The notes beneath the pieces are model-generated. The model made no database searches. It was given only the letters and a program-made list of their open reading frames with translations, and was not told where the DNA came from. A stretch of 64,000 nucleotides of DNA from Candidatus Rokuibacteriota bacterium (GTDB lineage Bacteria; Methylomirabilota; Methylomirabilia; Rokubacteriales; CSP1-6). The position numbers and the translations under genes are program-made. The stretch lies in NCBI GenBank assembly GCA_016193045.1, contig JACPSW010000086.1:11135-75134 (forward strand), written 5' to 3'. Shown piece by piece: positions 11,043 through 34,932 of the stretch (the first letter of the stretch is position 1; every line of letters begins with the position of its first letter).

Positions 11043-13085
<2,043 letters not shown>

Positions 13086-18662: not shown

Positions 18663-18737
18663 GCCGGTGTAGCTCAGTGGCAGAGCAGCTGATTCGTAAT
18701 CAGCAGGTCGTGGGTTCGAGTCCCACCGCCGGCTCCA
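18663..18737 (+). tRNA. tRNA-Thr (anticodon CGT)
   Basis: GCCGGTG-TA-GCTCAGTGGCAGAGC-A-GCTGA-TTCGTAA-TCAGC-AGGTC-GTGGGTTCGAGTCCCAC-CGCCGGC-T-CCA gives a cloverleaf with a 7/7 acceptor stem (one G-U), T-loop TTCGAGT and encoded CCA. Confidence 0.9.
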
Positions 18738-19716: not shown

Positions 19717-19773
19717 CAGGTCTATCCGTAGCTTCAATTTGTGAAAGAAATCGGACACAGGGAAGGGCGGGGG

Positions 19774-21984
19774 ATGAAGAGCCAGATAACCGCAGGCACG
19801 GGGATCCAGGGTCGTGCTCGCTCGGGACCGAGCGGGCTGCCTGTGAAGGTCGCGCTGGAGGGGGAACGGCGGGCCGAGTTGCAGGGGGAGGTCGTGGCCT
19901 TCGACCGCTTCTGGATGAGAGTGAAGCTCGGGGCGAGCAAAGCTACCGCGCGCGAGGGGTCGAACGTCGTCCTCGAGCTCGCGAACCTCGACGGCAAGCC
20001 TGCGATCCAGGCGAACGGAATCGTATGGCGAGCGCCCGGCGATGGTCTCATCACGGTTTTGCTCAGCTTGAGCAGCCAGGAGTACGGTCGCCTCAAAGCC
20101 CTCGTGAGCGCTTCCGCGGATTCGAGATCGGCCCTGTCGCCGTGGATGCTCGGCCTGGTGAGCTCGCCTCCGCAGGCCGAGGCACCCACAAGCGTGAGGC
20201 GCCCGGCGCCTGAGCCGGAGAGCCCGGCGCGTGCCGCCGAGCCGAGGGCGAAGTCCCCCGGTCGAGGGCCGGGGTCGGAGAAGGAGATGCGTCGCCCGGT
20301 GGCGCCGAGGCGTGCCAGGCGTGTGAGCCCGGCCGAGGAGGCGGCGATCCTGATGGCCCGGGGGGACCATGAGGGAGCGGCGCGACTCTACTCGGAGGCG
20401 GTCCGGGAGTCCCCGGAGGATGTCTCGCTCTGGTATGCGCTCGGAGCCGCGCTCCATCGCCTCAGGCGGTGGAGAGAGGCGGCGGAGGCCTTCGAGTACG
20501 TGATCGGCCACGGCCGACCTGACTCCCGGGATGTGCGGCTCGCGCGGCTCTGGCTCGAGCGCGGGAGGATCGCCAGGGAGCCGGCCCCGGAGGGTCCAGC
20601 CCAAGCGCGGGCCGCCGGGGTCGAGCCGGGTCCCGAGCCGTCGGAGGCGGAGGGGCAGGACGCACCGGAGGAGCCGGACCCAGAGCCCTCGGAGCCGAGC
20701 CTCGTCCAGCAGGCGGCGATGCTGGAAGCTCGGGGCGAATACAGGGAGGCGGCCAAGCTTTACTACCAGGGGCTCCAGGCATCGCCGCAGGATGCGTCTC
20801 TCTGGTATGCCCTGGGAACGACCCTGCATCGCATGGACCGGTCCAAGGCGGCGGCGGGGGCCTTCGAGAAGGCGGTCGAGCATGGACAGCCCGATTCGCG
20901 GGAGGTCGAGCTCGCTCGGCTGTGGCTCGAGGGACGAGACGCCCCGGCGGAGAGCACGGCGCCCGACGTGGGCGCTGAACCGGAGCAGCAGGACCACGCG
21001 GGCGCGCCGAGCGCATCGGCGGAGCCCGACGCCGAGCCGTCCGTCGCGAGCGCGGTCCCGGAGCCCCCCGCTCCATCCAGCTCGGCGCGGCAGGCGGCGC
21101 TTCGAGCGGCCCAGGGGGACTACGAGGGCGCCGCGCAGCTCTACTACCGAGCCTTCGAGCAGGCCCTCGGGGCGGCGCCGGATGATGTGCTGCTCTGGTA
21201 CGCCCTCGGCGTGACCCTGCAACACCTCAGCCAGGGGAAGGCCGCCGCCCGGGCCTTCGAAAGGGTCGTACAGCACGGCCGGCCCGGCTCGCGGGAGGTG
21301 CGGCTCGCTCGGCTCTGGCTGGAGATCGGTGACGCTGCCGTCGGACCGGTCGGGGTGGCGACGCCCGCGGCAGAGGCGGCCGCGCTCCCTGCGGAAGGCG
21401 CGGGCGCGAGCACGCCCATCCACACGGAGATACCGGCCGCGCCGCCCGAGCTACCAGCGCCGCCTTCGGGGCGCGGCGCTACCGCACGGAGGCGGCCGTC
21501 GGCGACTCCCGTCGTGCCGCTTGATGATCCGTGGGAGCTCGGTCGCGCCTTTGATCGGGACATGCCGGTGCCGAAGGTGGTCGAGAGGGAGGAGCCGGCG
21601 GATTCCGACGCGGCCGACCTCGAGCCCTCGAGCCCTTCCTCCGACGGACCACGCACGAGACGGGACGTGCATCGGCCGTCGCGCTCAGGGCGCACCAAGC
21701 AACCGGGGCCGAATCCGGCCGAGGAGGCGGCGATCCTGGCGGGCCGGGGGGACTATGAGGAGGCGGCGCGACTCTACTCCGAGGCGCTCCAGGCAGCGCC
21801 GGGGGACGTCTCGCTCTGGTACGCGCTGGGAGTGACCCTGCGTCACCTCAGGCGGTTGGCGGAAGCGGGGGAAGCCTTCGAGTACGTGGTGCGCCATGGC
21901 CGACCCGGTTCCCAGGAGGCGCGGCTCGCGCGCCTCTGGCTGGAGCGCGGGGGCACCGGAGAGGAGCCGGGCGCGCGCCCTTAG
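19774..21984 (+). CDS. Repeat protein with an N-terminal PilZ-like beta-barrel region and four ~80-aa TPR-like repeats
   Basis: Four copies of EEAAIL..RGD.E.AA.LY.....P.DV.LWYALG..L..L......AFE.V..HGRP.S.....ARLWLE are present. Copies 1 and 4 are about 85% identical at the DNA level. The N-terminal region is PilZ-like by inference; RxxxR/DxSxGG is not evident. ATG 19774 is preferred over the supplied 19741. Confidence 0.6.
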   Translation: MKSQITAGTGIQGRARSGPSGLPVKVALEGERRAELQGEVVAFDRFWMRVKLGASKATAREGSNVVLELANLDGKPAIQANGIVWRAPGDGLITVLLSLSSQEYGRLKALVSASADSRSALSPWMLGLVSSPPQAEAPTSVRRPAPEPESPARAAEPRAKSPGRGPGSEKEMRRPVAPRRARRVSPAEEAAILMARGDHEGAARLYSEAVRESPEDVSLWYALGAALHRLRRWREAAEAFEYVIGHGRPDSRDVRLARLWLERGRIAREPAPEGPAQARAAGVEPGPEPSEAEGQDAPEEPDPEPSEPSLVQQAAMLEARGEYREAAKLYYQGLQASPQDASLWYALGTTLHRMDRSKAAAGAFEKAVEHGQPDSREVELARLWLEGRDAPAESTAPDVGAEPEQQDHAGAPSASAEPDAEPSVASAVPEPPAPSSSARQAALRAAQGDYEGAAQLYYRAFEQALGAAPDDVLLWYALGVTLQHLSQGKAAARAFERVVQHGRPGSREVRLARLWLEIGDAAVGPVGVATPAAEAAALPAEGAGASTPIHTEIPAAPPELPAPPSGRGATARRRPSATPVVPLDDPWELGRAFDRDMPVPKVVEREEPADSDAADLEPSSPSSDGPRTRRDVHRPSRSGRTKQPGPNPAEEAAILAGRGDYEEAARLYSEALQAAPGDVSLWYALGVTLRHLRRLAEAGEAFEYVVRHGRPGSQEARLARLWLERGGTGEEPGARP

Positions 21985-22195
21985 CGCGCATTATTCGCGA
22001 ACGGCGATGGCGCGACCGGGCGGGTGGCGCAGGGTGCAACCCCCACGGGGCCGCGCGCAGTGGGCCCCCCTCGTCCCGTCCGCCGCGCGCAGCGGGGCGT
22101 TCGGGCGAGTGGGTGACGGAGCCGGACCCGTGGGGGTTGCACCCTGCGACAGGCCCCGCCCGCTACACTCGACCATGCTTCGTGAATAATGCAGG
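21985..22195. mobile_element. MITE copy 1 (~211 bp) filling the gap between convergent stop codons
   Basis: It starts CGCGCATTATTCGCGAACGG and ends CTTCGTGAATAATGCAGG, giving terminal inverted repeats. The interior is a long palindrome (CGCAGGGTGCAACCCCCACGGG ... CCCGTGGGGGTTGCACCCTGCG). It is about 90% identical to 30866-31080. Confidence 0.6.
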
Positions 22196-23833
22196 TTAGC
22201 CCCCCGCGCCGTCCCCCGACGGTGCCAGGGACGGCACGAGGGGGTCGAGCTTCGGCGGGAGGCACGTGATGTTCCGCTTCCCCGGAATCGGGAGCTCGAG
22301 CGGTGAGAGCCCGAGAGTCTCGAGGGCCCGGTTTCCCGCCTGGAAGGTCCACCGCGGGTCCTTCTGGACGCGCCGAATCAGAAGCTCTTCACGCAGGCGC
22401 CCCTCGGAATCGTAGAGGCCGTCTTCGAGCTCCTCCAGAAAGGAGATATACTCCCGGGGCCCCGGCTCGATATCCCGCCACAGATACCGGTGCAGGAGTT
22501 TCCATTTCGCATCGGTGAACTTGCCGCGCTTCAGCGCCCCGAGGACCTGCCCCGGAGCATAGATCCTCCGGTAGGCGTCGATGAGCGCCCGCTGGAATCT
22601 CGATGGAGGCATGCGGAGGGGAAAGTGCGTCGCGTAGTGCCCGTCGCAGTACGCCCATCCGCGGAAGATGCTCCGGTACCAGGGGACGATGGTTCGATAC
22701 CCGTTGATATGCTCGGGGAAGTGTCCCCAGATCGGAAAGAAATACGCGGTCGCGAGGTTCTGCTCCAGAACAAAATCGACGGTGCGGTGAATGGTTTCCA
22801 GCGAGTCGGTATCGGCCCCGACCACGAAGGACCCCAGGATGCCGAAGCCAAAGGCGTGCAATTTCTGGATCGCGGCGACGATTTGCTCGAGGGTCTGACG
22901 CTTGTTGTAGGCCGTGAGGGTTTCGGGCTGGACCGACTCGTAGCCCTGGTAGATGTAATTGATCCCGGCCCGGCGCATCAGGGCCAGGAGCTCGTCGTCC
23001 CTGGCGACCTCCACCCGGGCGAAGACGACGATGTCGAAGCCGAAGTCCTCCTCGATCATCCGGTGCAGGAGCTTCTTTGTGTAGGGCCGCAGGGAGACGA
23101 ACTCGTTGTCCACGAACAGGAGCGACCGGCCGTACCGCCGCTTATCGCGCAGGTCGCGGATCACGGCCTCGATGTCCCGTTTACGGTAGCCGCTGGCGAA
23201 CATGGTGTTGACGATGCAGAATGTGCACTTGAAGAGGCATCCGCGGGAGGACTGCACCGTCAGCAGCGGCACCTTCCGCCGCAGAAAAAGATCGAGCGGG
23301 CCCATCCGACGGTACCCTTCGATGAGGGAAAAATTCGGGATGGTATCGAACCTGGTCGGCCCGGGTCGGGGAGCCGTCCGGTGAACGCGATCACCGACCC
23401 GATAGGCGATGCCGGCCACCCGCCCCACGTCGCCTCCGGAAGCGATCGCGGCCACGAGCTCCAGGATGGTCTCGTCGCCTTCGCCGAAGACCACGTAATC
23501 GCAGTGCGCGAGGCAGGACTCGGGAAAGTAGGTCGCATGCGTCCCGCCGATGATGGTCGGAATGCCGAGCTTTGATCGAACCTCCCCGGCGAGGCGATAG
23601 ATCTTGTCGGCCCCGGCGTTCAAGGACGAAAAACACACGAGGTCGGAGGCGGCGATCCGGTGCCACTCGGGGGGCTTGATGTGCTCCATATACACCGTCA
23701 CGTCGTACCCGGCTTCGGAGAGGATGGTCCCGATGAGCGGCATGCCGTAGTCCGGCATGACCATCCGATGGCAGAAGTCGGGGAACTCGCCGCCGAGTTG
23801 GATGCAGGTGATTTTCTCGATAGGCATGGTCAT
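22196..23833 (-). CDS. Cobalamin (B12)-binding-domain radical SAM protein
   Basis: An N-terminal B12-binding fold is followed by the Cx3Cx2C motif SRGCLFKCTFC. The protein is about 545 aa. Its start overlaps the stop of the upstream cyclase gene (ATGA). Confidence 0.8.
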   Translation of the reverse strand: MTMPIEKITCIQLGGEFPDFCHRMVMPDYGMPLIGTILSEAGYDVTVYMEHIKPPEWHRIAASDLVCFSSLNAGADKIYRLAGEVRSKLGIPTIIGGTHATYFPESCLAHCDYVVFGEGDETILELVAAIASGGDVGRVAGIAYRVGDRVHRTAPRPGPTRFDTIPNFSLIEGYRRMGPLDLFLRRKVPLLTVQSSRGCLFKCTFCIVNTMFASGYRKRDIEAVIRDLRDKRRYGRSLLFVDNEFVSLRPYTKKLLHRMIEEDFGFDIVVFARVEVARDDELLALMRRAGINYIYQGYESVQPETLTAYNKRQTLEQIVAAIQKLHAFGFGILGSFVVGADTDSLETIHRTVDFVLEQNLATAYFFPIWGHFPEHINGYRTIVPWYRSIFRGWAYCDGHYATHFPLRMPPSRFQRALIDAYRRIYAPGQVLGALKRGKFTDAKWKLLHRYLWRDIEPGPREYISFLEELEDGLYDSEGRLREELLIRRVQKDPRWTFQAGNRALETLGLSPLELPIPGKRNITCLPPKLDPLVPSLAPSGDGAGG

Positions 23834-26800
23834 CCCCTGCGGCCTGCCGGCTCAGCGAGCAGCAGGCGGGCCTCCTCGAGGTCTGGGGCGTCGAAGCCCT
23901 CGGTGAACCAGCCGTAGACGGCCGCCAGCATCCGGCGGGCCTCTTCCTTCCTTCCCTGGCTGTGCCACAGCCGAGCCAGACTCATCGCCGCCCGGAGCTC
24001 CAGGGACTTCGCGCCCTGGCCCCGGGCGATGTCGAGGGCTTGATAAAAGTAGCGCTCGGCTTCGGCCACGTCACTCCGAGAGACCATCAGCAGCCACTCG
24101 CCCTTGAGTCGGTGCAGCTCGGCCTCACACCAGCGCTCGTCGGTCTTGTCCACCACGGCCAGGGCCTCGGCCAGCGCCGCAAGCTCCTCTTCGGCGTGGC
24201 CGGCTTTTCCGTGGGCCTCGGCCAGCATGGCAAGAAAATTCGGCCGCGCAAGGTCGGCCCCCGTCGCGCTGTAGGCGGCAATCCCCTGCCGCTGCAGTCT
24301 GATCCCCTCCTCTGTGTGCCCCTGTTCGGCCAGCGCCCAGCCCCCCAGGATCGCTCCCCAGGCCAGCCAGTACGGGATCCCGTGCTCGCTGGCGAGCGCA
24401 TTCGCCGCCTGGGCCCGCTCCTGGGCTTCCTGCACGTGACGGGATAGCTGACAGAGGGAGGCACCGAGGGTCAGAGCGTAGCTCAGGCTGAAGGGGTGGG
24501 AAAGATGGTGAGCCAGGGCAAGCGCCTCCCGACTCGTCTCACGGGCCTGGTCCGGGTAGCCGAGCATCCACAGGGTGACGGCCTTGTAGGAGAGGCAGGC
24601 CACACCGGGATCCTGCAGCGCCCGGTGGGAGCGGCGCTTCTGCGGATCGTAGAGGGCGATGCCCTGTTCGAAGTGCTCGCGGGCCGAGGCCAGCTCTCCA
24701 AGATGGAACAGGGTCATCCCCAGCGCGTAATGGGCCCACAGGATGAGCGCGGGGCTGTGCGCGCGCTCGGCCAGGGCGAGACACTCCCTCCCCAGGTCGT
24801 GCGCGGTGCGCAACTCCGCCCGCACGATGTAATACCCCCACAGTCCCCGGAGGACCGTGTAGAGCTGAGGCGTCTCGCCGAGCTGCCGACACAGCTCCCG
24901 GGCCCGGGCGTAGGTTTTCTCCACTTCCGGGGCCGCGTAGCTCTTCGCAGCCATCAAGGCGGGGCCGAGGGTGGTCTGCAGGGCCAGCTCCTGCTGGGCG
25001 CGCTCGGGGGTGTCCGGAAACGTCTTCAGCAGCTCCAGGCCCCGGGTGAGGTGCGCGACGGCTTCGACATTCGCCGAGCGCTCGCTCGCCAGCTGACCGG
25101 CTTTCTGCCAGTAGGCGATCGCCTGTTTGCTGAGGCCCGCCTCGGTGAGGTGATGGGCCAGGAGTTCGGGCTGGGTCTCGGAGATCTCGGGGAACCGCTC
25201 GGTCAGCAGATGCGCGATCCGCTGGTGATACTCCTGCCGCGTGCTCTTCAGCAGCGACTGATAGGCGACGTCCTGGACGAGGGCGTGCTTGAAGATGTAC
25301 GTCGCGTGCGGAGGGACACCGCGCTGATAGAGCAGTTCGGCCTCGATCAGTTGCCGCAGTCCCTGCTGGAGCGTCGTCTCGTCAAGCGGGGCGACGGCGT
25401 GGAGCAGCTCGTACGAGAATTGCCGGCCGATCGTGGCGCCCAGCTGCGCCACGGCTTTGACGGTCGCCACGCGATCCAGCCGGGCCATCAGCGAGTCCTG
25501 AAGCGTGGCGGGAATCGCCAGCGGAGGCAGGGGGGCCGTGAGCTCGTAGCGATCCTCCCGCTCCTTGAGGAGGCCCGATTCCAGGACCATCTTGGTCAAT
25601 TCCTCGACGAAGAGCGGGACGCCGTCGGTCTTGGTCACGACCTCGTGGAGGACCTCCGCCGGCAGGGCCTTGCCACCCGCCACCCGCTCGACGAGCTGCT
25701 TCACCTGGTGGCGGGGAAGGCGGCTCAGCGTAATCAGCGTGAGGTGCGCGCGGGCGATCCAGGGCACCTGAAATGCCGGACGGCAGGTGAAGAGGACGAA
25801 GAGGCGCGCGGTCGGGGCCTGGTCCACCAGGAGGCCGAGCAAGGCGAGCGTCGAGGGATCCACCCAGTGGAGGTCTTCCGCGACGAATACCACCGGCTGC
25901 TGCATCGCGAGCTCCACGAGCAGCGTGAGGACGGCTTCGAGCGTCTTCTGCCTCTGCCGCTCGGCCGTCAGGGTCAATGGCGGGTACCGGTCGTCCGGGA
26001 GTGGGAGGGACAGGAGGGAGGCCAGGAGCGGGATGGCTTCCGTCGGGTTGAGGCGATATCCGGACAGGGCGGTCTCCAGCTTGCGCACTTTGTCCGCGGA
26101 CCCATCGCTGCCTTCGAACCGGAACGCCCGTTGAAGCAGATCGATCACCGGGTACAAGGCGCTATTCTGGTGATACAGCGAGCAGCGGCATTCCAGCAGG
26201 GTGTGCGGCTCGGTCGCGATGCGAGCTTGCAGGGTCTGCACCAGGTGTGATTTCCCGATCCCCGCCTCCCCGCTCAGCAGGACCACCTGTCCCAGCCCCT
26301 CCTTGACCTGCTCCCAGCGCCTGAGGAGCAGGCCCATTTCCTCCTCGCGGCCCACCAGAGGAGTCCGTTCGGTGATCGCGGCCTCCAGGGGGCTCTGGAT
26401 GGCACTCTCGCCGAGAACCTGGTAGAGCGTGAGTGGCGTGGAGACACCTCTGAGCTGGTGGGCGCCCAGTTCGCGGAACGTGAACAGTCCCTGGGCCAGC
26501 CGGCGGGTCGCGGCGCTGACGACGACCGTGCCGGGTTCGGCCAGCCCCTGGAGTCGGGCCGCGAGGTTCGGCGTCTCGCCCAGGGCGAGCCGCTCGTGCC
26601 GGGCGCCCGCTCCGATCTCCCCCACGACGACCAGGCCGGTGTGAATTCCCACGCGCGCGTCGAGCCGGACGCCTCGCTCTTCCCGAAGGCGCGCATTCAG
26701 CCTCCCCATGGCATCCACGATCCCCAGGCCCGTGCGGACCGCCCGCGGAGCGTCGTCTTCGTGGGCGCGGGGGTAGCCGAAGTACACCAGGAGACCGTCC

Positions 26801-27162
26801 CCGAGGTATTGCGCGATGTGCCCCTCGTAGTGGCCGATCACCTTGGCACAGGTCTCCTGGTAGCTGCGCACGACGTCGCGCAGTTCTTCAGGGTCGAGGC
26901 GTTCGGAGAGCGCCGTCGATCCCGCGAGATCGCAGAACATGACGGTGAGCTGCCGCCGCTCTGCTTCGGGGGCTCCGGCCTCGGCCGGTGGTGGGGGAGC
27001 GGTCGCGAGCGGTTGACCGCAGCGTTTGCAGAAGTTGTGGTCGGGAGCGTTCTCGGTCCCGCATCGAGCGCACACGACGATGAGTCTTGTCCCGCACTTG
27101 GGACAAAACGCCGCATCAGAAGGCGTCTCGCCGTGACACTGGGGGCACTTCATGCGCGCCAA
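23830..27162 (-). CDS. Multidomain signalling protein: double zinc-ribbon + class III adenylate/guanylate cyclase + STAND/AAA ATPase + TPR
   Basis: The N-terminal zinc ribbons are CPQCHG...CPKCG and CARCG...CKRCG. The cyclase CHD is VMFCDLAGSTAL...GDGLLVYFG...IHTGLVVVGEIG. The P-loop is GEAGIGKS, followed by long TPR-like helical repeats. The protein is 1110 aa. Confidence 0.8.
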   Translation of the reverse strand: MARMKCPQCHGETPSDAAFCPKCGTRLIVVCARCGTENAPDHNFCKRCGQPLATAPPPPAEAGAPEAERRQLTVMFCDLAGSTALSERLDPEELRDVVRSYQETCAKVIGHYEGHIAQYLGDGLLVYFGYPRAHEDDAPRAVRTGLGIVDAMGRLNARLREERGVRLDARVGIHTGLVVVGEIGAGARHERLALGETPNLAARLQGLAEPGTVVVSAATRRLAQGLFTFRELGAHQLRGVSTPLTLYQVLGESAIQSPLEAAITERTPLVGREEEMGLLLRRWEQVKEGLGQVVLLSGEAGIGKSHLVQTLQARIATEPHTLLECRCSLYHQNSALYPVIDLLQRAFRFEGSDGSADKVRKLETALSGYRLNPTEAIPLLASLLSLPLPDDRYPPLTLTAERQRQKTLEAVLTLLVELAMQQPVVFVAEDLHWVDPSTLALLGLLVDQAPTARLFVLFTCRPAFQVPWIARAHLTLITLSRLPRHQVKQLVERVAGGKALPAEVLHEVVTKTDGVPLFVEELTKMVLESGLLKEREDRYELTAPLPPLAIPATLQDSLMARLDRVATVKAVAQLGATIGRQFSYELLHAVAPLDETTLQQGLRQLIEAELLYQRGVPPHATYIFKHALVQDVAYQSLLKSTRQEYHQRIAHLLTERFPEISETQPELLAHHLTEAGLSKQAIAYWQKAGQLASERSANVEAVAHLTRGLELLKTFPDTPERAQQELALQTTLGPALMAAKSYAAPEVEKTYARARELCRQLGETPQLYTVLRGLWGYYIVRAELRTAHDLGRECLALAERAHSPALILWAHYALGMTLFHLGELASAREHFEQGIALYDPQKRRSHRALQDPGVACLSYKAVTLWMLGYPDQARETSREALALAHHLSHPFSLSYALTLGASLCQLSRHVQEAQERAQAANALASEHGIPYWLAWGAILGGWALAEQGHTEEGIRLQRQGIAAYSATGADLARPNFLAMLAEAHGKAGHAEEELAALAEALAVVDKTDERWCEAELHRLKGEWLLMVSRSDVAEAERYFYQALDIARGQGAKSLELRAAMSLARLWHSQGRKEEARRMLAAVYGWFTEGFDAPDLEEARLLLAEPAGRRG

Positions 27163-29764: not shown

Positions 29765-30865
29765 GTGAACGCAGCGGTCCTGTCAGAGATCGGTGGCGCC
29801 CTGAAGGTCGAGGACCTCCCGCGTCCTGCCCCACGGGCCGGCGAGGTTCTGGTGAAGGTCACCGCGTGCGGGGTCTGCCACACCGACCTCCACGTGGTCA
29901 AGGGCGAGGTGAAGTTCCCGCTGCCGGCCGTCCTGGGCCACGAGATCTCGGGGGTGGTGGCGGAGATCGGTCCGAACGCCGGCGGCGTGAAGCCGGGCGA
30001 TCAGGTCATCTGCTCCTTCATCATGCCGTGCGGCGCCTGCTACTACTGCGCCCGGGGCCGCGACGACCTCTGCGAGACGTTCTTCGCCATGAACCGGCTC
30101 AAGGGCACGCTCTACGACGGCGAGAGCCGGCTCCGGCGGAAGGACGGCTCGCCGGTGGCGATGTACAGCATGGCCGGGTTGGCGGAGTACGCCGTCGTCC
30201 CCGTCTCCGACGTCTTCCCCGCCCCTCCCAACCTGCCGCTGGCGGATGCCTGCATCCTCGGCTGCGCCATCATGACGGCCTACGGCGCCGTGAAGAACCA
30301 GGCCCAGGTCATGCCGGGCGAGACGGTCGCCGTCGTCGGCGTGGGCGGGGTGGGATCCAACGCCATCCAGATCGCGCGGGTCTTCGGGGCCACCGAGGTG
30401 ATCGCCGTGGACGTGCGGGACGACAAGCTCGAGGCGGCGCGGAAGCTGGGAGCCACTCAGGTCGTGAACGCGTCGAAGGGCGATCCCGTGGCCCAGGTGA
30501 TGAGCCTGACCGGAGGCCGCGGTGCGGATGTGGCGATCGAGGCGCTCGGCAGGCCTGAAACGGTTGTGAACGCTTTTATGATGACGCGCGATGGCGGCCG
30601 CACCGTCGTAATCGGCATCGCCGCGGGCCAGGCTACCGCCGGCATCGAGGTCACGCGTCTCGTCCGCCGCGGCATCCGGCTCTCCGGCTCTTACGGCTGC
30701 CGCGTGCGCACGGACATGCCCGAGGTTCTGCGGCTGGCGGCCAAGGGCCAGATCAACGTGTCTCAGCCGATCTCGCGGCGCTATGCGCTGGAGGATGCCG
30801 ACCAGGCCTACCAGGCCCTCAACCGGGGGGAGATTGTGGGCCGCGCGATCGTCACGACGGCCTAG
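29765..30865 (+). CDS. Zinc-dependent alcohol dehydrogenase (MDR family)
   Basis: The catalytic-zinc motif is GHEISGVV. The structural zinc site is CGACYYC...C, and the Rossmann fold is VGVGGVG. Confidence 0.85.
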   Translation: MNAAVLSEIGGALKVEDLPRPAPRAGEVLVKVTACGVCHTDLHVVKGEVKFPLPAVLGHEISGVVAEIGPNAGGVKPGDQVICSFIMPCGACYYCARGRDDLCETFFAMNRLKGTLYDGESRLRRKDGSPVAMYSMAGLAEYAVVPVSDVFPAPPNLPLADACILGCAIMTAYGAVKNQAQVMPGETVAVVGVGGVGSNAIQIARVFGATEVIAVDVRDDKLEAARKLGATQVVNASKGDPVAQVMSLTGGRGADVAIEALGRPETVVNAFMMTRDGGRTVVIGIAAGQATAGIEVTRLVRRGIRLSGSYGCRVRTDMPEVLRLAAKGQINVSQPISRRYALEDADQAYQALNRGEIVGRAIVTTA

Positions 30866-31080
30866 CGCGCACTATTCACGAGCGGCGGCGGCGCGAGCGG
30901 GCGGGTGGCGCAGGGTGCAGCCCCCACGGGGCCGCGCGCAGTGGGCCCCCCTCGTCCCGTCCGCCGCGCGCAGCGCGGCGTTCGGGTGAGTGGGTGACGG
31001 AGCCGGACCCACGGGGGCTGCACCCTGCGACAGGCCCCGCCCGCTGCACTCGACGATGGTTCGTGAATAATGCGCGCTAG
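30866..31080. mobile_element. MITE copy 2 (~215 bp) between convergent stops
   Basis: CTAGCGCGCACTATTCACGA ... TCGTGAATAATGCGCGCTAG form 20-bp TIRs flanked by TA. The same palindromic interior as copy 1 is present. Confidence 0.6.
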
Positions 31081-31089
31081 CTCACGAGC

Positions 31090-34000
31090 TCAGCGGCCCG
31101 CGAGGCTCGCCTGGCACTGGGCGAGGAGCGGGGCCATCTCGAGCCGGGCGGCGAGCGTAGCGGCCTCCCGGTAGCACGTCTCGGCCTGGCTCAAATCGGC
31201 GGGTGCTCGGCGCGCGTGGATATCGCCTAGGAGCCGCAGCGTCCAGGCCTGATGGCCCTCTTCCTTGTGGGTCCGCGCCAGCTCCAGGGCCTGGCGCGCC
31301 ACCGCCAGAGCGCGATCCATCTGTGCCGCGGCAAGCAGCCCCTCCCCCAGGTGCGCCGTCCAGAGGGCCAGGTAGGCCTTCACACCGAGCGCCTCCGTGA
31401 GGCTCACGCCCTCCTCGAGGAGCGGGAGCCCCTCCGAGACCCGGCCGAGGCGCACGAGGGTGTGTCCGAGGATGGATGAGGGGATCGGCCGCCAGACTGC
31501 GAGGCCCCGCTCCCGGCACGCCTGCAGGCTCTTCTCGAGGTCGGGGCGCGCGCCCTCGAAGTTGCCCTCGCGGTTCTTGACGAGGCCCGCCAGGGTCCAG
31601 GCGATGGCCTCGCTGTAAGCGTGGCCGCTGCCGTCGGCCGCGCGGCGGGCTTTCTCGACCGCCGCGCCGGCCTCGACGAAATCGCCCAGCTCGGCCCAGG
31701 CGAAGGCCAGCCACCCGCACGAGGCCACGTACGCGAATCCCCCGCGGGTCACGCCGGGCGCCCCCTCGTTTTTTTCGATCAGGACGATGTTCCGGCCGAG
31801 CGTGGAGACCGCCTCGCGGTAGCGCCCCTGGGCATGGGCGCAGGTCCCCATGTACTGGAGCGCCAGCACCTGGAGCGGCAGGTCGCCCGCGCGCTCGCCG
31901 ATCGCCAGGCAGCGCTGGCCGTACTCGCTGGCCAGGTGGGGCTCGCCCTTCAGGTAGTGGTAGTTGATCAGGTAGGTGTACACGCGGGCCAGCCGCTGCT
32001 CGTCGTCCAGGGCCCGGGCGAGCCCTTCGGCCTCCCGGGAGAGGGCGAGGACCTCTTCGAGACGCCCCAGCTGGAGGAGCGGCGGGCGCAGGTCGAGGGC
32101 GATGTCGATGGTCCGCTCGTCGCGCTTCCGGCTCTGGCCGAGGCGCGCGTTGGCCTCCAGCGCCCGCTGGAGAAACGTCGCCGCCTCGGTGTTGGCGCAG
32201 AGGCCGGCGGCCTTGGCGCCGGCCTCGCGCAGGTAGGTCACGGCCTTCTCCCACTCCTCGCCCTGGAGGAAGTGGTGGGCCAGCATCTCGACGTGCTCGG
32301 AGAGGCGCAGGGCATAGACCTCCTCCACCGCCTCGCCGATGAGCCGGTGGAGCGCCTTCCTGCGCTGGACCAGGAGGCTCTCGTAGGCCACCTCCTGAAC
32401 GAGGGCCTGGCGGAACATGTACGCGGCCTCGTCGAGGGACTTCTCGATGATCAGCTCGAGCTCCAGGAGCTTCTGGAGCGCCGTCGGGATCCCCTCCCCG
32501 CGATCGGCCACGCGCGCGAGCAGGCGCTGGGTGAAATCCCGGCCGATGACGGAAGCCATCTGCAGCGCTGATTTTGCAAGGTCAGGCAGGCGATCGATGC
32601 GCGCGGCCAGGACGTCGAGGATCGTCGGCGGGATCTTGAGCGCCTCGGCGCCATGGCTCCACCCGGTCTCCCTCAGCGAGCGGGCGACTTCTTCGATGAA
32701 CAGCGGGTTGCCGCCCGTCTTCTCGACGACGGCAGACAGCAGCTCGGGCGGGGCGGGGGTCTCGGCGAGGATGCCGCGGGCGAGCGCCGCCCGCTCGTCG
32801 GGCTCGAGCGGCTGAAGCACGATCCGGGAGCTCACGGGGCTCCCGGCGGCCGGCGGGGTCGCGCGCGGACGGCAGGTCAGGATGACGAGGGCGGGGGCGC
32901 GCGGGATGGCCGCCGCCCAGAAGTTCAGGAACTCGGCCGAGGCCCCGTCGAGCCACTGGCAGTTCTCGAAGACGAAGACGTGGGGCCGCTGCCGCGCGGC
33001 GGCCGCGCTGAGCCGGCCGAGGGCGTCGAGGAGGCGCTCCTTGCGCTCCTGCGGGGAGAGCGCCGCCATCCCGCCCTCCGCGGCGCCGAGGGACAAGAGG
33101 TAGCGGAGCGCCGGCGCGGCCGTCTCGACATCGGGGCCGAGCTCCGCGAGCCGCGCCGTGAGCTTCCGGTCCATCTCCCGCTCCGGATCGCCATCGGCCA
33201 GCCCCAGCAGGGCGCGCACGATGTCGATCACCGGCAGGTACGGCGTGGACTGGCCGTAGGGGACGCACGTCCCTTCGACCCAGGCCATGGTCCCGGCGGG
33301 GAGGCGGGTGCGGAGTTCCCAGAGGAGGCGCGACTTGCCGATCCCCGCTTCCCCGAGGATCGTGACCACCCGGCCGCGCCCGGCGCGGGCCTCGTCGGCG
33401 GCGCTCAGGAGGGCGGCGAGCTCCGCTTCCCGCCCGACGAACGTCGAGAGCCCGGCCTCGGAGGCGACGGCGAGCCGGCTCCGGTGGGCCCTCCTGCGGA
33501 GCGGGCGGAAGACCTCAACCGGAAGGCTTTTCCCCTTCACCGTGTGCGTGCCGAGCGCCTCGCAGTCGAAGTACCCGGCGACCAGGTGGTGAGTGGCCTC
33601 GCTGATCGCCACCGTCCCCGGCTCGGCCAGCGCCTGCAGGCGCGCGGCCAGGTTGACGGTGTCGCCCTGGGCGGTGTAGTCCATGCGGAGGTCGTCCCCG
33701 ATCTTGCCGACGACGACGAGTCCCGTATTCACGCCGATCCTGAGGGCGACCCGCTGGCCGCGGCTCCGCTGAAGCTCGTCGCCGACCTTGCGCATGGCTT
33801 CCTGGATTGCCAGCGCCGCCTCCACGGCGCGCGCCGCGTGGTCCTCCAGGGCGAGGGGGGCGCCGAACAGGGCCATGATCCCGTCGCCGGTGAACTGGTT
33901 CACCGTGCCCTCGTACCGGTGGACCTCCGCCAGCATGATCTCGAAGAGGCGATTCATCAGGTCGTGAAGCTCCTCCGGGTCCAGCTGCTCGGAGAGGCCC

Positions 34001-34293
34001 GTGAAGTTCTGGAGGTCGGCGAAGAGGACGGTGACCTGCTTGCGCTCGCCCTCCAGCGCCGTCCGGGACGTGAGGATGCGCTCGGCCAGATGCCTGGGCG
34101 TGTAGGAACGGGGGGCGTCGAACTGGGCCGCGGGGACCGCGCCCGCGACGGGGGTCCCGCATTGATCGCAGAACTTCGCCCCCTCGCGGAGGTCGCCCTG
34201 ACAACGCGAGCACCGGGCGGCGAGGGGGGCGCCGCACCGGTCGCAGAACCTGGCGCCTTCGCGCAGATCGTGCCGGCAGCGCGGGCAGTTCAT
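31090..34293 (-). CDS. Paralogous zinc-ribbon + class III adenylate cyclase + STAND/AAA ATPase + TPR protein
   Basis: CPRCRH..CDRCG / CSRCQG..CDQCG are followed by VLFADLQNFTGLS...GDGIMALFG and GEAGIGKSRLL, then TPR repeats. It has the same architecture as 23830-27162. The protein is 1067 aa. Confidence 0.8.
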   Translation of the reverse strand: MNCPRCRHDLREGARFCDRCGAPLAARCSRCQGDLREGAKFCDQCGTPVAGAVPAAQFDAPRSYTPRHLAERILTSRTALEGERKQVTVLFADLQNFTGLSEQLDPEELHDLMNRLFEIMLAEVHRYEGTVNQFTGDGIMALFGAPLALEDHAARAVEAALAIQEAMRKVGDELQRSRGQRVALRIGVNTGLVVVGKIGDDLRMDYTAQGDTVNLAARLQALAEPGTVAISEATHHLVAGYFDCEALGTHTVKGKSLPVEVFRPLRRRAHRSRLAVASEAGLSTFVGREAELAALLSAADEARAGRGRVVTILGEAGIGKSRLLWELRTRLPAGTMAWVEGTCVPYGQSTPYLPVIDIVRALLGLADGDPEREMDRKLTARLAELGPDVETAAPALRYLLSLGAAEGGMAALSPQERKERLLDALGRLSAAAARQRPHVFVFENCQWLDGASAEFLNFWAAAIPRAPALVILTCRPRATPPAAGSPVSSRIVLQPLEPDERAALARGILAETPAPPELLSAVVEKTGGNPLFIEEVARSLRETGWSHGAEALKIPPTILDVLAARIDRLPDLAKSALQMASVIGRDFTQRLLARVADRGEGIPTALQKLLELELIIEKSLDEAAYMFRQALVQEVAYESLLVQRRKALHRLIGEAVEEVYALRLSEHVEMLAHHFLQGEEWEKAVTYLREAGAKAAGLCANTEAATFLQRALEANARLGQSRKRDERTIDIALDLRPPLLQLGRLEEVLALSREAEGLARALDDEQRLARVYTYLINYHYLKGEPHLASEYGQRCLAIGERAGDLPLQVLALQYMGTCAHAQGRYREAVSTLGRNIVLIEKNEGAPGVTRGGFAYVASCGWLAFAWAELGDFVEAGAAVEKARRAADGSGHAYSEAIAWTLAGLVKNREGNFEGARPDLEKSLQACRERGLAVWRPIPSSILGHTLVRLGRVSEGLPLLEEGVSLTEALGVKAYLALWTAHLGEGLLAAAQMDRALAVARQALELARTHKEEGHQAWTLRLLGDIHARRAPADLSQAETCYREAATLAARLEMAPLLAQCQASLAGR

Positions 34294-34374: not shown

Positions 34375-34932
34375 ATGGGGAAACGGCTCGTGTCCGTCGC
34401 GGCGCTCGTGCTCCTCGGGGCGCTCCCCGCGCTGGCCCAGCAGCCGGCGGCGGGCGATCCGAGCCGCCCCTTCACCTCTCAGCGGCCTCCGGCCGCCGCC
34501 CAGCCCCCGCCCGCCAACCCGTACCTGCCCCAGGGCAACCCCTTCGGGCCCGCGAGCGCGACGAATCCGTACACGCCCCAGGGCAACCCCTTCGGCCCGG
34601 CGAGCGTGACGAACCCGTACGCGCCCCAGGGCAACCCCTTCATGCCGGCGAGCCCCACCGCCCCGTCGGTCCCTTCGATCCCTTCCGTGGGCGCCACGCG
34701 GGGGACCTTCGGCGTCGGAGTGCCCTTCACCCCCGAGGCTCCGTACAACCCGTACAGCCCGCTCGGGTCTCCGTTCAGCTCGGCGAGCCCGGCCTACCAG
34801 CCGGGGCAGCTGGGCAGTCCCTTCGCGCCTTACACCCCTTCCAACCCCTTCGGCGCGGGCGCTCCCTTCGACCCCTTCAACCCGAACAATCCCAACAGCC
34901 CCTTCTTCCCGCTGAGCCGTCCCAAGAAGTAG
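34375..34932 (+). CDS. Secreted Pro/Gly-rich repeat protein with NPY/NPF repeats
   Basis: The signal peptide is MGKRLVSVAALVLLGALPALAQQ. NPYxPQGNPFGPASxT occurs three times in tandem, and further NPY/NPF motifs follow. Confidence 0.6.
   Translation: MGKRLVSVAALVLLGALPALAQQPAAGDPSRPFTSQRPPAAAQPPPANPYLPQGNPFGPASATNPYTPQGNPFGPASVTNPYAPQGNPFMPASPTAPSVPSIPSVGATRGTFGVGVPFTPEAPYNPYSPLGSPFSSASPAYQPGQLGSPFAPYTPSNPFGAGAPFDPFNPNNPNSPFFPLSRPKK
34516..34659 (+). repeat. Three tandem 48-nt repeats encoding NPYxPQGNPFGPASxT
   Basis: The three units aacccgtacctgccccagggcaaccccttcgggcccgcgagcgcgacg, aatccgtacacgccccagggcaaccccttcggcccggcgagcgtgacg and aacccgtacgcgccccagggcaaccccttcatgccggcgagccccacc are directly visible. 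Confidence 0.6.

Follow-up and report, generated by a model that had tools for sequence, protein, structure and literature searches.

Two probable MITE copies with IS1380-type ends at convergent stop codons in a Candidatus Rokubacteria genome

Two near-identical non-coding sequences in the genome of a member of Candidatus Rokubacteria (Methylomirabilota) are, with a probability that we put at roughly four in five, non-autonomous MITE copies of the IS1380 family. Both were found in a 64-kb stretch of DNA, hereafter the window, which was analysed as a whole. The G+C content of the window is 69%, and its proteins are closest to those of Candidatus Rokubacteria and Methylomirabilia MAGs; for two of them, a look-up by exact sequence gave no record.

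In a repeat search of the 64-kb window, the two copies, here called A and B, appear as a 219-nt direct-repeat pair (21982-22200 and 30863-31081) with 92% identity, including the flanking tetranucleotides. Pairwise alignment shows that the similarity ends abruptly at the repeat borders and that the flanks are unrelated. A preliminary description of this DNA had reported two near-identical copies here and argued against a segmental duplication, and both statements are borne out, with the coordinates of copy A exact and copy B ending at 31076, before its CTAG. For both copies the neighbouring genes converge on the element, and the neighbours named earlier, TPR and B12-binding radical-SAM (rSAM) at copy A and alcohol dehydrogenase (ADH) and cyclase at copy B, are confirmed. 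The features needed for the following account are:

19741..21984, plus strand: TPR-repeat gene, left of copy A
21981..21984, no strand: left 4-bp duplication of copy A, TTAG; the TAG at 21982-21984 is the stop codon of the TPR gene
21985..22195, no strand: MITE copy A, 211 nt, non-coding, a long imperfect palindrome
21985..22000, plus strand: left terminal inverted repeat of copy A, CGCGCATTATTCGCGA, which matches IS1380-family left ends
22180..22195, minus strand: right terminal inverted repeat of copy A, TCGTGAATAATGCAGG, in which two outer positions are degenerate
22196..22199, no strand: right 4-bp duplication of copy A, TTAG; the TTA at 22196-22198 is the TAA stop codon of the rSAM gene, minus strand
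22196..23833, minus strand: B12-binding radical-SAM gene, right of copy A
29765..30865, plus strand: zinc-dependent alcohol dehydrogenase gene, left of copy B
30862..30865, no strand: left 4-bp duplication of copy B, CTAG; the TAG at 30863-30865 is the stop codon of the ADH gene
30866..31076, no strand: MITE copy B, 211 nt, missing at the orthologous site in two related Rokubacteria contigs
30866..30881, plus strand: left terminal inverted repeat of copy B, CGCGCACTATTCACGA
31061..31076, minus strand: right terminal inverted repeat of copy B, TCGTGAATAATGCGCG
31077..31080, no strand: right 4-bp duplication of copy B, CTAG, from reading of the sequence and alignment with the empty sites
31081..31088, no strand: eight additional bases, CTCACGAG, that follow the right CTAG of copy B and precede the cyclase/STAND stop codon
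31090..34293, minus strand: adenylate-cyclase/AAA/TPR (STAND-type) gene, right of copy B

The terminal inverted repeats of each copy measure 16-17 nt (CGCGCAYTATTCRCGA), not the 20 bp first proposed. At the right end of copy A, GCAGG stands in place of GCGCG, and the 17-nt end pattern (22180-22196) has three mismatches there. When up to three mismatches are allowed, the end motif TCGYGAATARTGCGCGC has four matches in the 64-kb window, all of which are the four element ends, against a mean of 0.79 in the shuffled window, where none of 100 shuffles reached four. The 211 nt have no coding capacity, and only mechanical ORFs cross them in this 69% G+C background; those at 21896-22189 and 30783-30989, previously listed as spurious, are indeed present. 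Copy A fills the whole gap between its neighbours, as had been said of both copies, while copy B leaves 9 nt (31081-31089) before the cyclase stop codon.

Two contigs, found as those encoding the closest homologues of the ADH, document the state of site B without the element. Both (L056, ADH 97% identical, and L058, 92%) keep the convergent ADH/STAND pair with no element and a single CTAG. The empty site reads ...GGCCTAGCTCAGCGG..., with the convergent stop codons 1 nt apart, where the window has CTAG, 211 nt and a second CTAG. Because these contigs carry the empty form, copy B is a discrete insertion that duplicated its target and was made after the lineages split. The eight extra bases at 31081-31088 are missing from both empty sites in the alignment, and they resemble a partial local duplication (CTCA..CTCA). 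For copy A, no clean empty site was found among the closest rSAM orthologues (92% and 79%), in which the downstream DNA differs.

Each copy lies near one of two paralogous genes (23830-27162 and 31090-34293, both on the minus strand; 1110 and 1067 aa) that combine a double zinc ribbon, an adenylate/guanylate cyclase, AAA_16 and TPR, and each paralogue adjoins a MITE copy or stands one gene off. The rSAM gene beside copy A is in an operon with the first of them, and the same operon is found in L135. The preliminary description tied the element to these cyclase/STAND operons. The proximity is there, and it is a coincidence, because the ADH/STAND junction is empty in close relatives and the 92% rSAM orthologue lacks the element downstream. 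In this orthologue (L135, L136) the STAND-rSAM operon is kept with different DNA downstream and no element, so the association is not conserved.

The ends of the element point to its parent family. The IS1380 family is a family of ISfinder with a transposase of Pfam family PF13701, and includes IS1380, IS1247, ISAcr4 and ISEcp1. In a Kiritimatiellia MAG, the same end and the same 56-nt inner sequence occur at five loci, mostly at a contig end, with five different outer flanks. Locus L049 (Kiritimatiellia) reads CTAG followed by CGCGCATTATTCACGA, with the start of a PF13701 (DDE_Tnp_1_4) transposase about 95 nt further on (E 7e-33). The MITE end is identical to the end of this element over the terminal 16 nt plus the CTAG, and it is similar to those of seven other IS1380-family elements:

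L060: CTAG followed by CCTGATCTATTCGCGA; homologue of the L049 transposase fragment about 95-105 nt downstream
L065: CTAG followed by CCTGGATTATTCACGT; homologue of the same fragment about 95-105 nt downstream
L131: CTAG followed by CCCGGATTATTCATGA; homologue of the same fragment about 95-105 nt downstream
L133: CTAG followed by CCTGCTTTATGCGCGA; homologue of the same fragment about 95-105 nt downstream
L066, Sulfitobacter: left end CTAA followed by CCCGGAAAATTCATGA; CTAA on both sides
L067, Bradyrhizobium: left end CTAG followed by CCCGTCTTATTCATCA; CTAG on both sides
L068, Acidiphilium (ISAcr4): left end CTAT followed by CCGGAATTATGCATGA; CTAT on both sides

Both ends are visible in the three complete annotated elements, L066, L067 and L068, and a tblastn search against plasmids matched genes annotated as 'IS1380 family transposase'. 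The consensus start of the IS1380-family elements is CTAG, CTAA or CTAT followed by CCnGnATTATTCAYGA, and the ends of the MITE family read CGCGCA... or CCCGCA.... Because they match annotated IS1380-family termini, the ends of the window element are IS1380-family ends. The element has the inverted repeats of about 15-16 bp beginning with C(C) and the direct repeat of 4-5 bp that characterise the family, by values drawn from PMC3281130 and from ISfinder; for IS1247 of this family, the inverted repeats are 16/13 bp and the direct repeat 5 bp (PMC3281130, Table 2).

The 211-bp element encodes no PF13701-type DDE transposase, and because there is no transposase gene inside, it is a derivative that uses IS1380 ends and not an IS. 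No gene for an IS1380-type transposase (PF13701) was found in the window or in any fetched Rokubacteria locus, and four IS1380 transposases, used as tblastn queries against all fetched loci, matched only the loci fetched as IS1380 and L049. In the search for a complete autonomous element, none of 55 genome loci showed a second end within 4 kb, and no element that has this exact end on both sides was recovered, Rokubacteria included. Look-ups of P0146, P0124, P0143 and P0158 returned only interrupted or decayed copies with left ends and no usable right ends, and a blastn search of plasmids with the end-to-end mini-palindrome gave a single match at chance level. A cognate IS with the same terminal repeats, as envisaged in the preliminary description, is represented by the identical left end of the PF13701 element L049, and not by a complete element or by one in Rokubacteria. 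Since the similarity between the MITE and the ISs stops after about 17 nt, the MITE is not a simple internal-deletion derivative of any IS seen. Our literature search found no paper on the end sequence and, in the CC-licensed literature, none that links MITEs to the IS1380 family.

Other mobile DNA was met among the loci with such ends. Nitrospira sp. LK70 carries another multicopy element with the same 16-nt terminal repeat (L045 1-493, L048 1-143, L002, L004), and in L045 the C-terminus of an IS256-type transposase (PF00872, E 6e-16) lies about 155 nt from the end. IS256 was considered as the parent and rejected, as L048 diverges 125 nt inside the end, so that the IS256 is probably nested in L045. 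In L059-L064, an IS1380-type element with the left end CTAG followed by CCTGATCTATTCGCGA is interrupted by an IS21-type element (Mu-transposase_C_2 plus IstB), an arrangement that recurs in six assemblies.

Copies of the family are spread well beyond the window. In a scan of one genome per species, the exact end 19-mer TCGYGAATARTGCGCGCTA occurred at 55 loci, where about 17 would be expected by our own rough estimate, which assumes uniform composition and was not computed by a tool. Full-length relatives are present in Rokubacteria/Methylomirabilota (L029, 91%; L050, 86%), which also hold short variants with 93-128 nt between the ends, in which the outer arms are kept and the centre is absent. 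Several Nitrospira MAGs contain a MITE that is likewise 211 nt end to end and has the same ends with an unrelated interior, and in some MAGs there are mini hairpins of 37-41 nt end to end. The 22-nt centre of the window element was found at 62 metagenome loci, with 63 core matches in about 47 flank groups, and in metagenomes the family occupies about 40 or more further sites, with several copies per Rokubacteria MAG. Contig or locus ends cut 25 of the 63 core matches, as is expected of repeats because they break assemblies. Both ends were recovered for 24 copies (including L029, L050 and both window copies), among which the commonest ends are CCCGCATTATTCGCGAA ... TTCGTGAATAATGCGGG, mostly with CTAG flanks, and copy A aligns end to end with 13 other family copies. 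Across Rokubacteria/Methylomirabilota, Nitrospira, Kiritimatiellia and Armatimonadota, one 16-nt end of IS1380 type is common, letter for letter, to otherwise unrelated small elements.

The element is therefore small and non-coding, has inverted repeats, shows a target duplication with an empty site at copy B, occupies multiple unrelated sites, and has its ends in common with a transposase-encoding element, of which the identical representative is seen by its left end only. These are the features expected of a MITE, and the earlier reading as such is upheld by the empty sites of copy B, by dozens of copies with other flanks, and by the transposase-bearing IS family with the same ends.

Some smaller units were noted in the same material. 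In L013, L021, L022 and L023 (Armatimonadota and other MAGs), 37-nt units read CCGCGCATTATTCACGA-GGA-TCGTGAATAATGCGCGC, with the two ends 3 nt apart, and each is preceded by a second conserved hairpin, GGCCCGGATCATGCTC...GAGCATAATCCGGG; the units could be MITEs reduced to a minimum, or could belong to a larger repeat. In L048 (125-356), two elements that have these ends lie directly side by side with one CTAG in common, and another CTAG follows the second, as expected if one had inserted into the duplicated target of the other. The short variants lack the inner 125-nt palindrome. That this palindrome might be a second MITE nested in the first was considered and set aside, as it was never seen without the outer arms in a data set that is biased in this respect.

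The interior of the element raises the question of a function. On either strand and in both copies the whole unit folds as one long hairpin, predicted to be about 100 bp long, with a minimum free energy of -142 to -162 kcal/mol and z-scores of -7.0 to -9.8, a stability reached by none of 200 shuffles, in agreement with the long imperfect palindrome and hairpin described before. The consensus fold of 15 copies from different sites (alignment A4) comprises 75 pairs, and 97% of cells are paired. Both sides are changed in eleven of these pairs, compared with 4.5 +/- 1.5 in column shuffles (none of 500 gets to 11, a significance that is overstated, as the copies are related) and with 1-4 when partners are slid. 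In the same alignment, pairwise identity is 87-94% in the paired interior arms, 78-84% in the terminal inverted repeats and 70-81% in the unpaired subterminal stretches, which are the least conserved; these values are inflated around the 22-nt core on which the metagenome copies were chosen. An interior better conserved than the inverted repeats would be unusual if transposition alone constrained the sequence. G.U cells number 54 against 11 A.C cells, over 16 and 10 pair positions. Together these are signs that the palindrome is maintained by compensatory changes.

On this basis the element could be a domesticated structured element, whose hairpin, as a 3' UTR RNA or a DNA cruciform, is now under selection, the transposon origin being only its history. 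Such a hairpin might block or terminate transcription, hold back 3' exonucleases or be cleaved by RNase III. The very stable fold on both strands, the two-sided changes, the well-kept paired arms and the excess of G.U over A.C all speak for it, and we nevertheless hold it to be unlikely. In close relatives the site is empty and both genes are intact, so the element is dispensable there. A scan of both strands around both copies revealed neither a U-tract nor an intrinsic-terminator motif, and the sequence after the hairpin is G+C-rich in both. Among the listed family elements the gene that shares its stop codon with the element stands on either side, which leaves no orientation bias. Most of the G.U excess comes from a few inherited positions, and the relatedness of the copies and their selection on the core weaken the covariation and conservation figures as noted. 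A search of Rfam 15 gave no match for the element at the gathering score, and up to an E of 10 only chance-level microRNA and lncRNA matches. Taken as a case for RNA function, the hairpin data seem weak to us, and the terminator or RNA-stability role suggested in the preliminary description, like any other influence on transcript ends or mRNA decay, is speculative. We consider it doubtful, to a similar degree, that Rokubacteria have put the hairpin to use as a common 3'-end module of convergent gene pairs, which would then be a U-tract-independent block to transcription or a control point for exonucleases or RNase III. If this were true, an IS1380-type transposase homing to TAG stop codons would offer a ready-made route to install 3' ends.

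The length of the target duplication bears on a second alternative, a TA-duplicating MITE of the IS630/Tc1-mariner type. IS630-family elements insert at CTAG and duplicate TA. TA does flank every end, as the preliminary description had it, and CTAG targets fit a 2-bp and a 4-bp duplication alike. Three Nitrospira copies have unequal flanks (TTAG/CTAG, CTAG/CTAA and CTAG/CTAC) that agree on TA only; we read these as mutations after insertion, and a 2-bp TA duplication otherwise fits them better. Non-palindromic flanks are nonetheless equal on both sides in copy A (TTAG) and in the annotated IS1380-family elements L066 (CTAA) and L068 (CTAT). Because of the non-palindromic repeats of L066 and L068, with which the TTAG on either side of copy A agrees, the flanking repeat is best read as a 4-bp direct repeat, TTAG or CTAG in the window, and not as TA. 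Since, in addition, the terminal 16-17 nt match IS1380-family ends, one of them identical and beside a PF13701 transposase, and no IS630-type transposase was seen beside such an end, an IS630-type origin is very improbable. Hardly any weight is left for a REP/REPIN-type palindrome mobilised by a RAYT (Y1) transposase, or for a simple segmental duplication: a palindromic intergenic repeat between convergent genes would suit the former, yet REPINs leave no target duplication and here there are a 4-bp duplication, a precise empty site and IS1380 ends, and the latter is at odds with the unrelated flanks of A and B and the other sites, about 40 or more.

For the preferred reading, MITE copies of the IS1380 family, the position at stop codons can be related to the target. 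CTAG is found 24 times in the window, where 183 would be expected from base composition, an approximately 8-fold under-representation; TTAG, CTAA and TTAA are under-represented 3- to 7-fold. By a crude GC3 test, about 7 of the 24 CTAG are stop codons of likely genes. Among 16 listed family elements elsewhere, which represent 14 distinct sites (L097 and L109 share one, as do L050 and L085), 13 have on at least one side a GC3-rich ORF whose TAG stop codon lies in the flanking tetranucleotide, and in the majority of the 16, gene ends converge within 30 nt on both sides. Insertions would tend to land on stop codons because CTAG is rare and a sizeable share of the remaining sites are TAG stops, and the position between convergent stop codons can be ascribed to the choice of target, to its rarity and to the harmless nature of insertion between convergent genes.

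The proposed mechanism is as follows. The element would retain only the 16-17-bp inverted repeats recognised by an IS1380-type DDE transposase (PF13701), and would be mobilised in trans: a transposase made elsewhere in the cell would bind both ends and excise or copy the element, which would insert into YTAG, mostly CTAG, with a 4-bp staggered cut, so that the tetranucleotide is duplicated. The duplication would rebuild a stop codon on each side and leave neither gene damaged. At copy A, the left TTAG retains the TAG of the TPR gene, and the right TTAG, read on the other strand, the TAA of the rSAM gene, and it is because the target is duplicated that each neighbour keeps a stop codon. Insertions at convergent sites would be neutral and persist because there is no promoter to disrupt, and read-through transcripts from either neighbour would carry the hairpin.

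Compared with the ISs of the IS1380 family, the element has the same type of inverted repeat, (C)CnGnATTATTCAYGA of about 16 nt, and the same 4-bp direct repeat at YTAN, mostly CTAG. It differs in its size (211 bp against about 1.6-2.0 kb), its lack of a transposase gene and its unrelated interior, and would rank as a non-autonomous derivative or mimic of IS1380. Bacterial MITEs that form long hairpins include Correia (Neisseria), ERIC/IRU (enterobacteria), RUP (Streptococcus pneumoniae) and Nezha (cyanobacteria). Like the Rokubacteria element, they are non-coding units of 100-250 bp with terminal inverted repeats and a short target duplication, intergenic, forming a hairpin when co-transcribed, present in many copies and polymorphic for presence and absence. 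The Rokubacteria MITE differs from them in its end sequences, parent family, host phylum and YTAG (stop-codon) target. A further likeness is to piggyBac, which also has a 4-bp target with a central TA that is duplicated (TTAA in piggyBac, YTAG here), and differs in the target sequence and in its eukaryotic hosts, as opposed to a bacterium here. IS1380 transposases serve as the prokaryotic outgroup of piggyBac, which duplicates TTAA (PMC10813416).

In our assessment this is real and ordinary selfish DNA, a Rokubacteria MITE family with sister families that have the same ends in other phyla. It matters mainly for annotation, as the 211-bp units yield spurious ORFs and break metagenome assemblies, and masking of these units is advisable in Rokubacteria and Nitrospira genomes. 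Because the 16-nt end is identical across several phyla, the data suggest that a lineage of bacterial transposases related to piggyBac and targeting YTAG has widely seeded MITE families in uncultivated soil and groundwater bacteria. The targeting of stop codons offers a testable example of how target choice and genome composition channel insertions to harmless places.

A few further features of the window are recorded here. The Rfam matches are limited to a TPP riboswitch (12974-13084, minus strand; 60.1 bits, gathering score 54.3) and a tRNA gene (18663-18734, plus strand; 72.6 bits). The TPR gene beside copy A contains, at 20329-21975, internal direct repeats of about 261 and about 176 nt with 65-80% identity (D1 and D2), which are presumably TPR module duplications. 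At 34516-34659 there are three tandem 48-nt units with 83-88% identity (family D5), and since the unit length is divisible by three, they would, if coding, give a repeated 16-residue motif.
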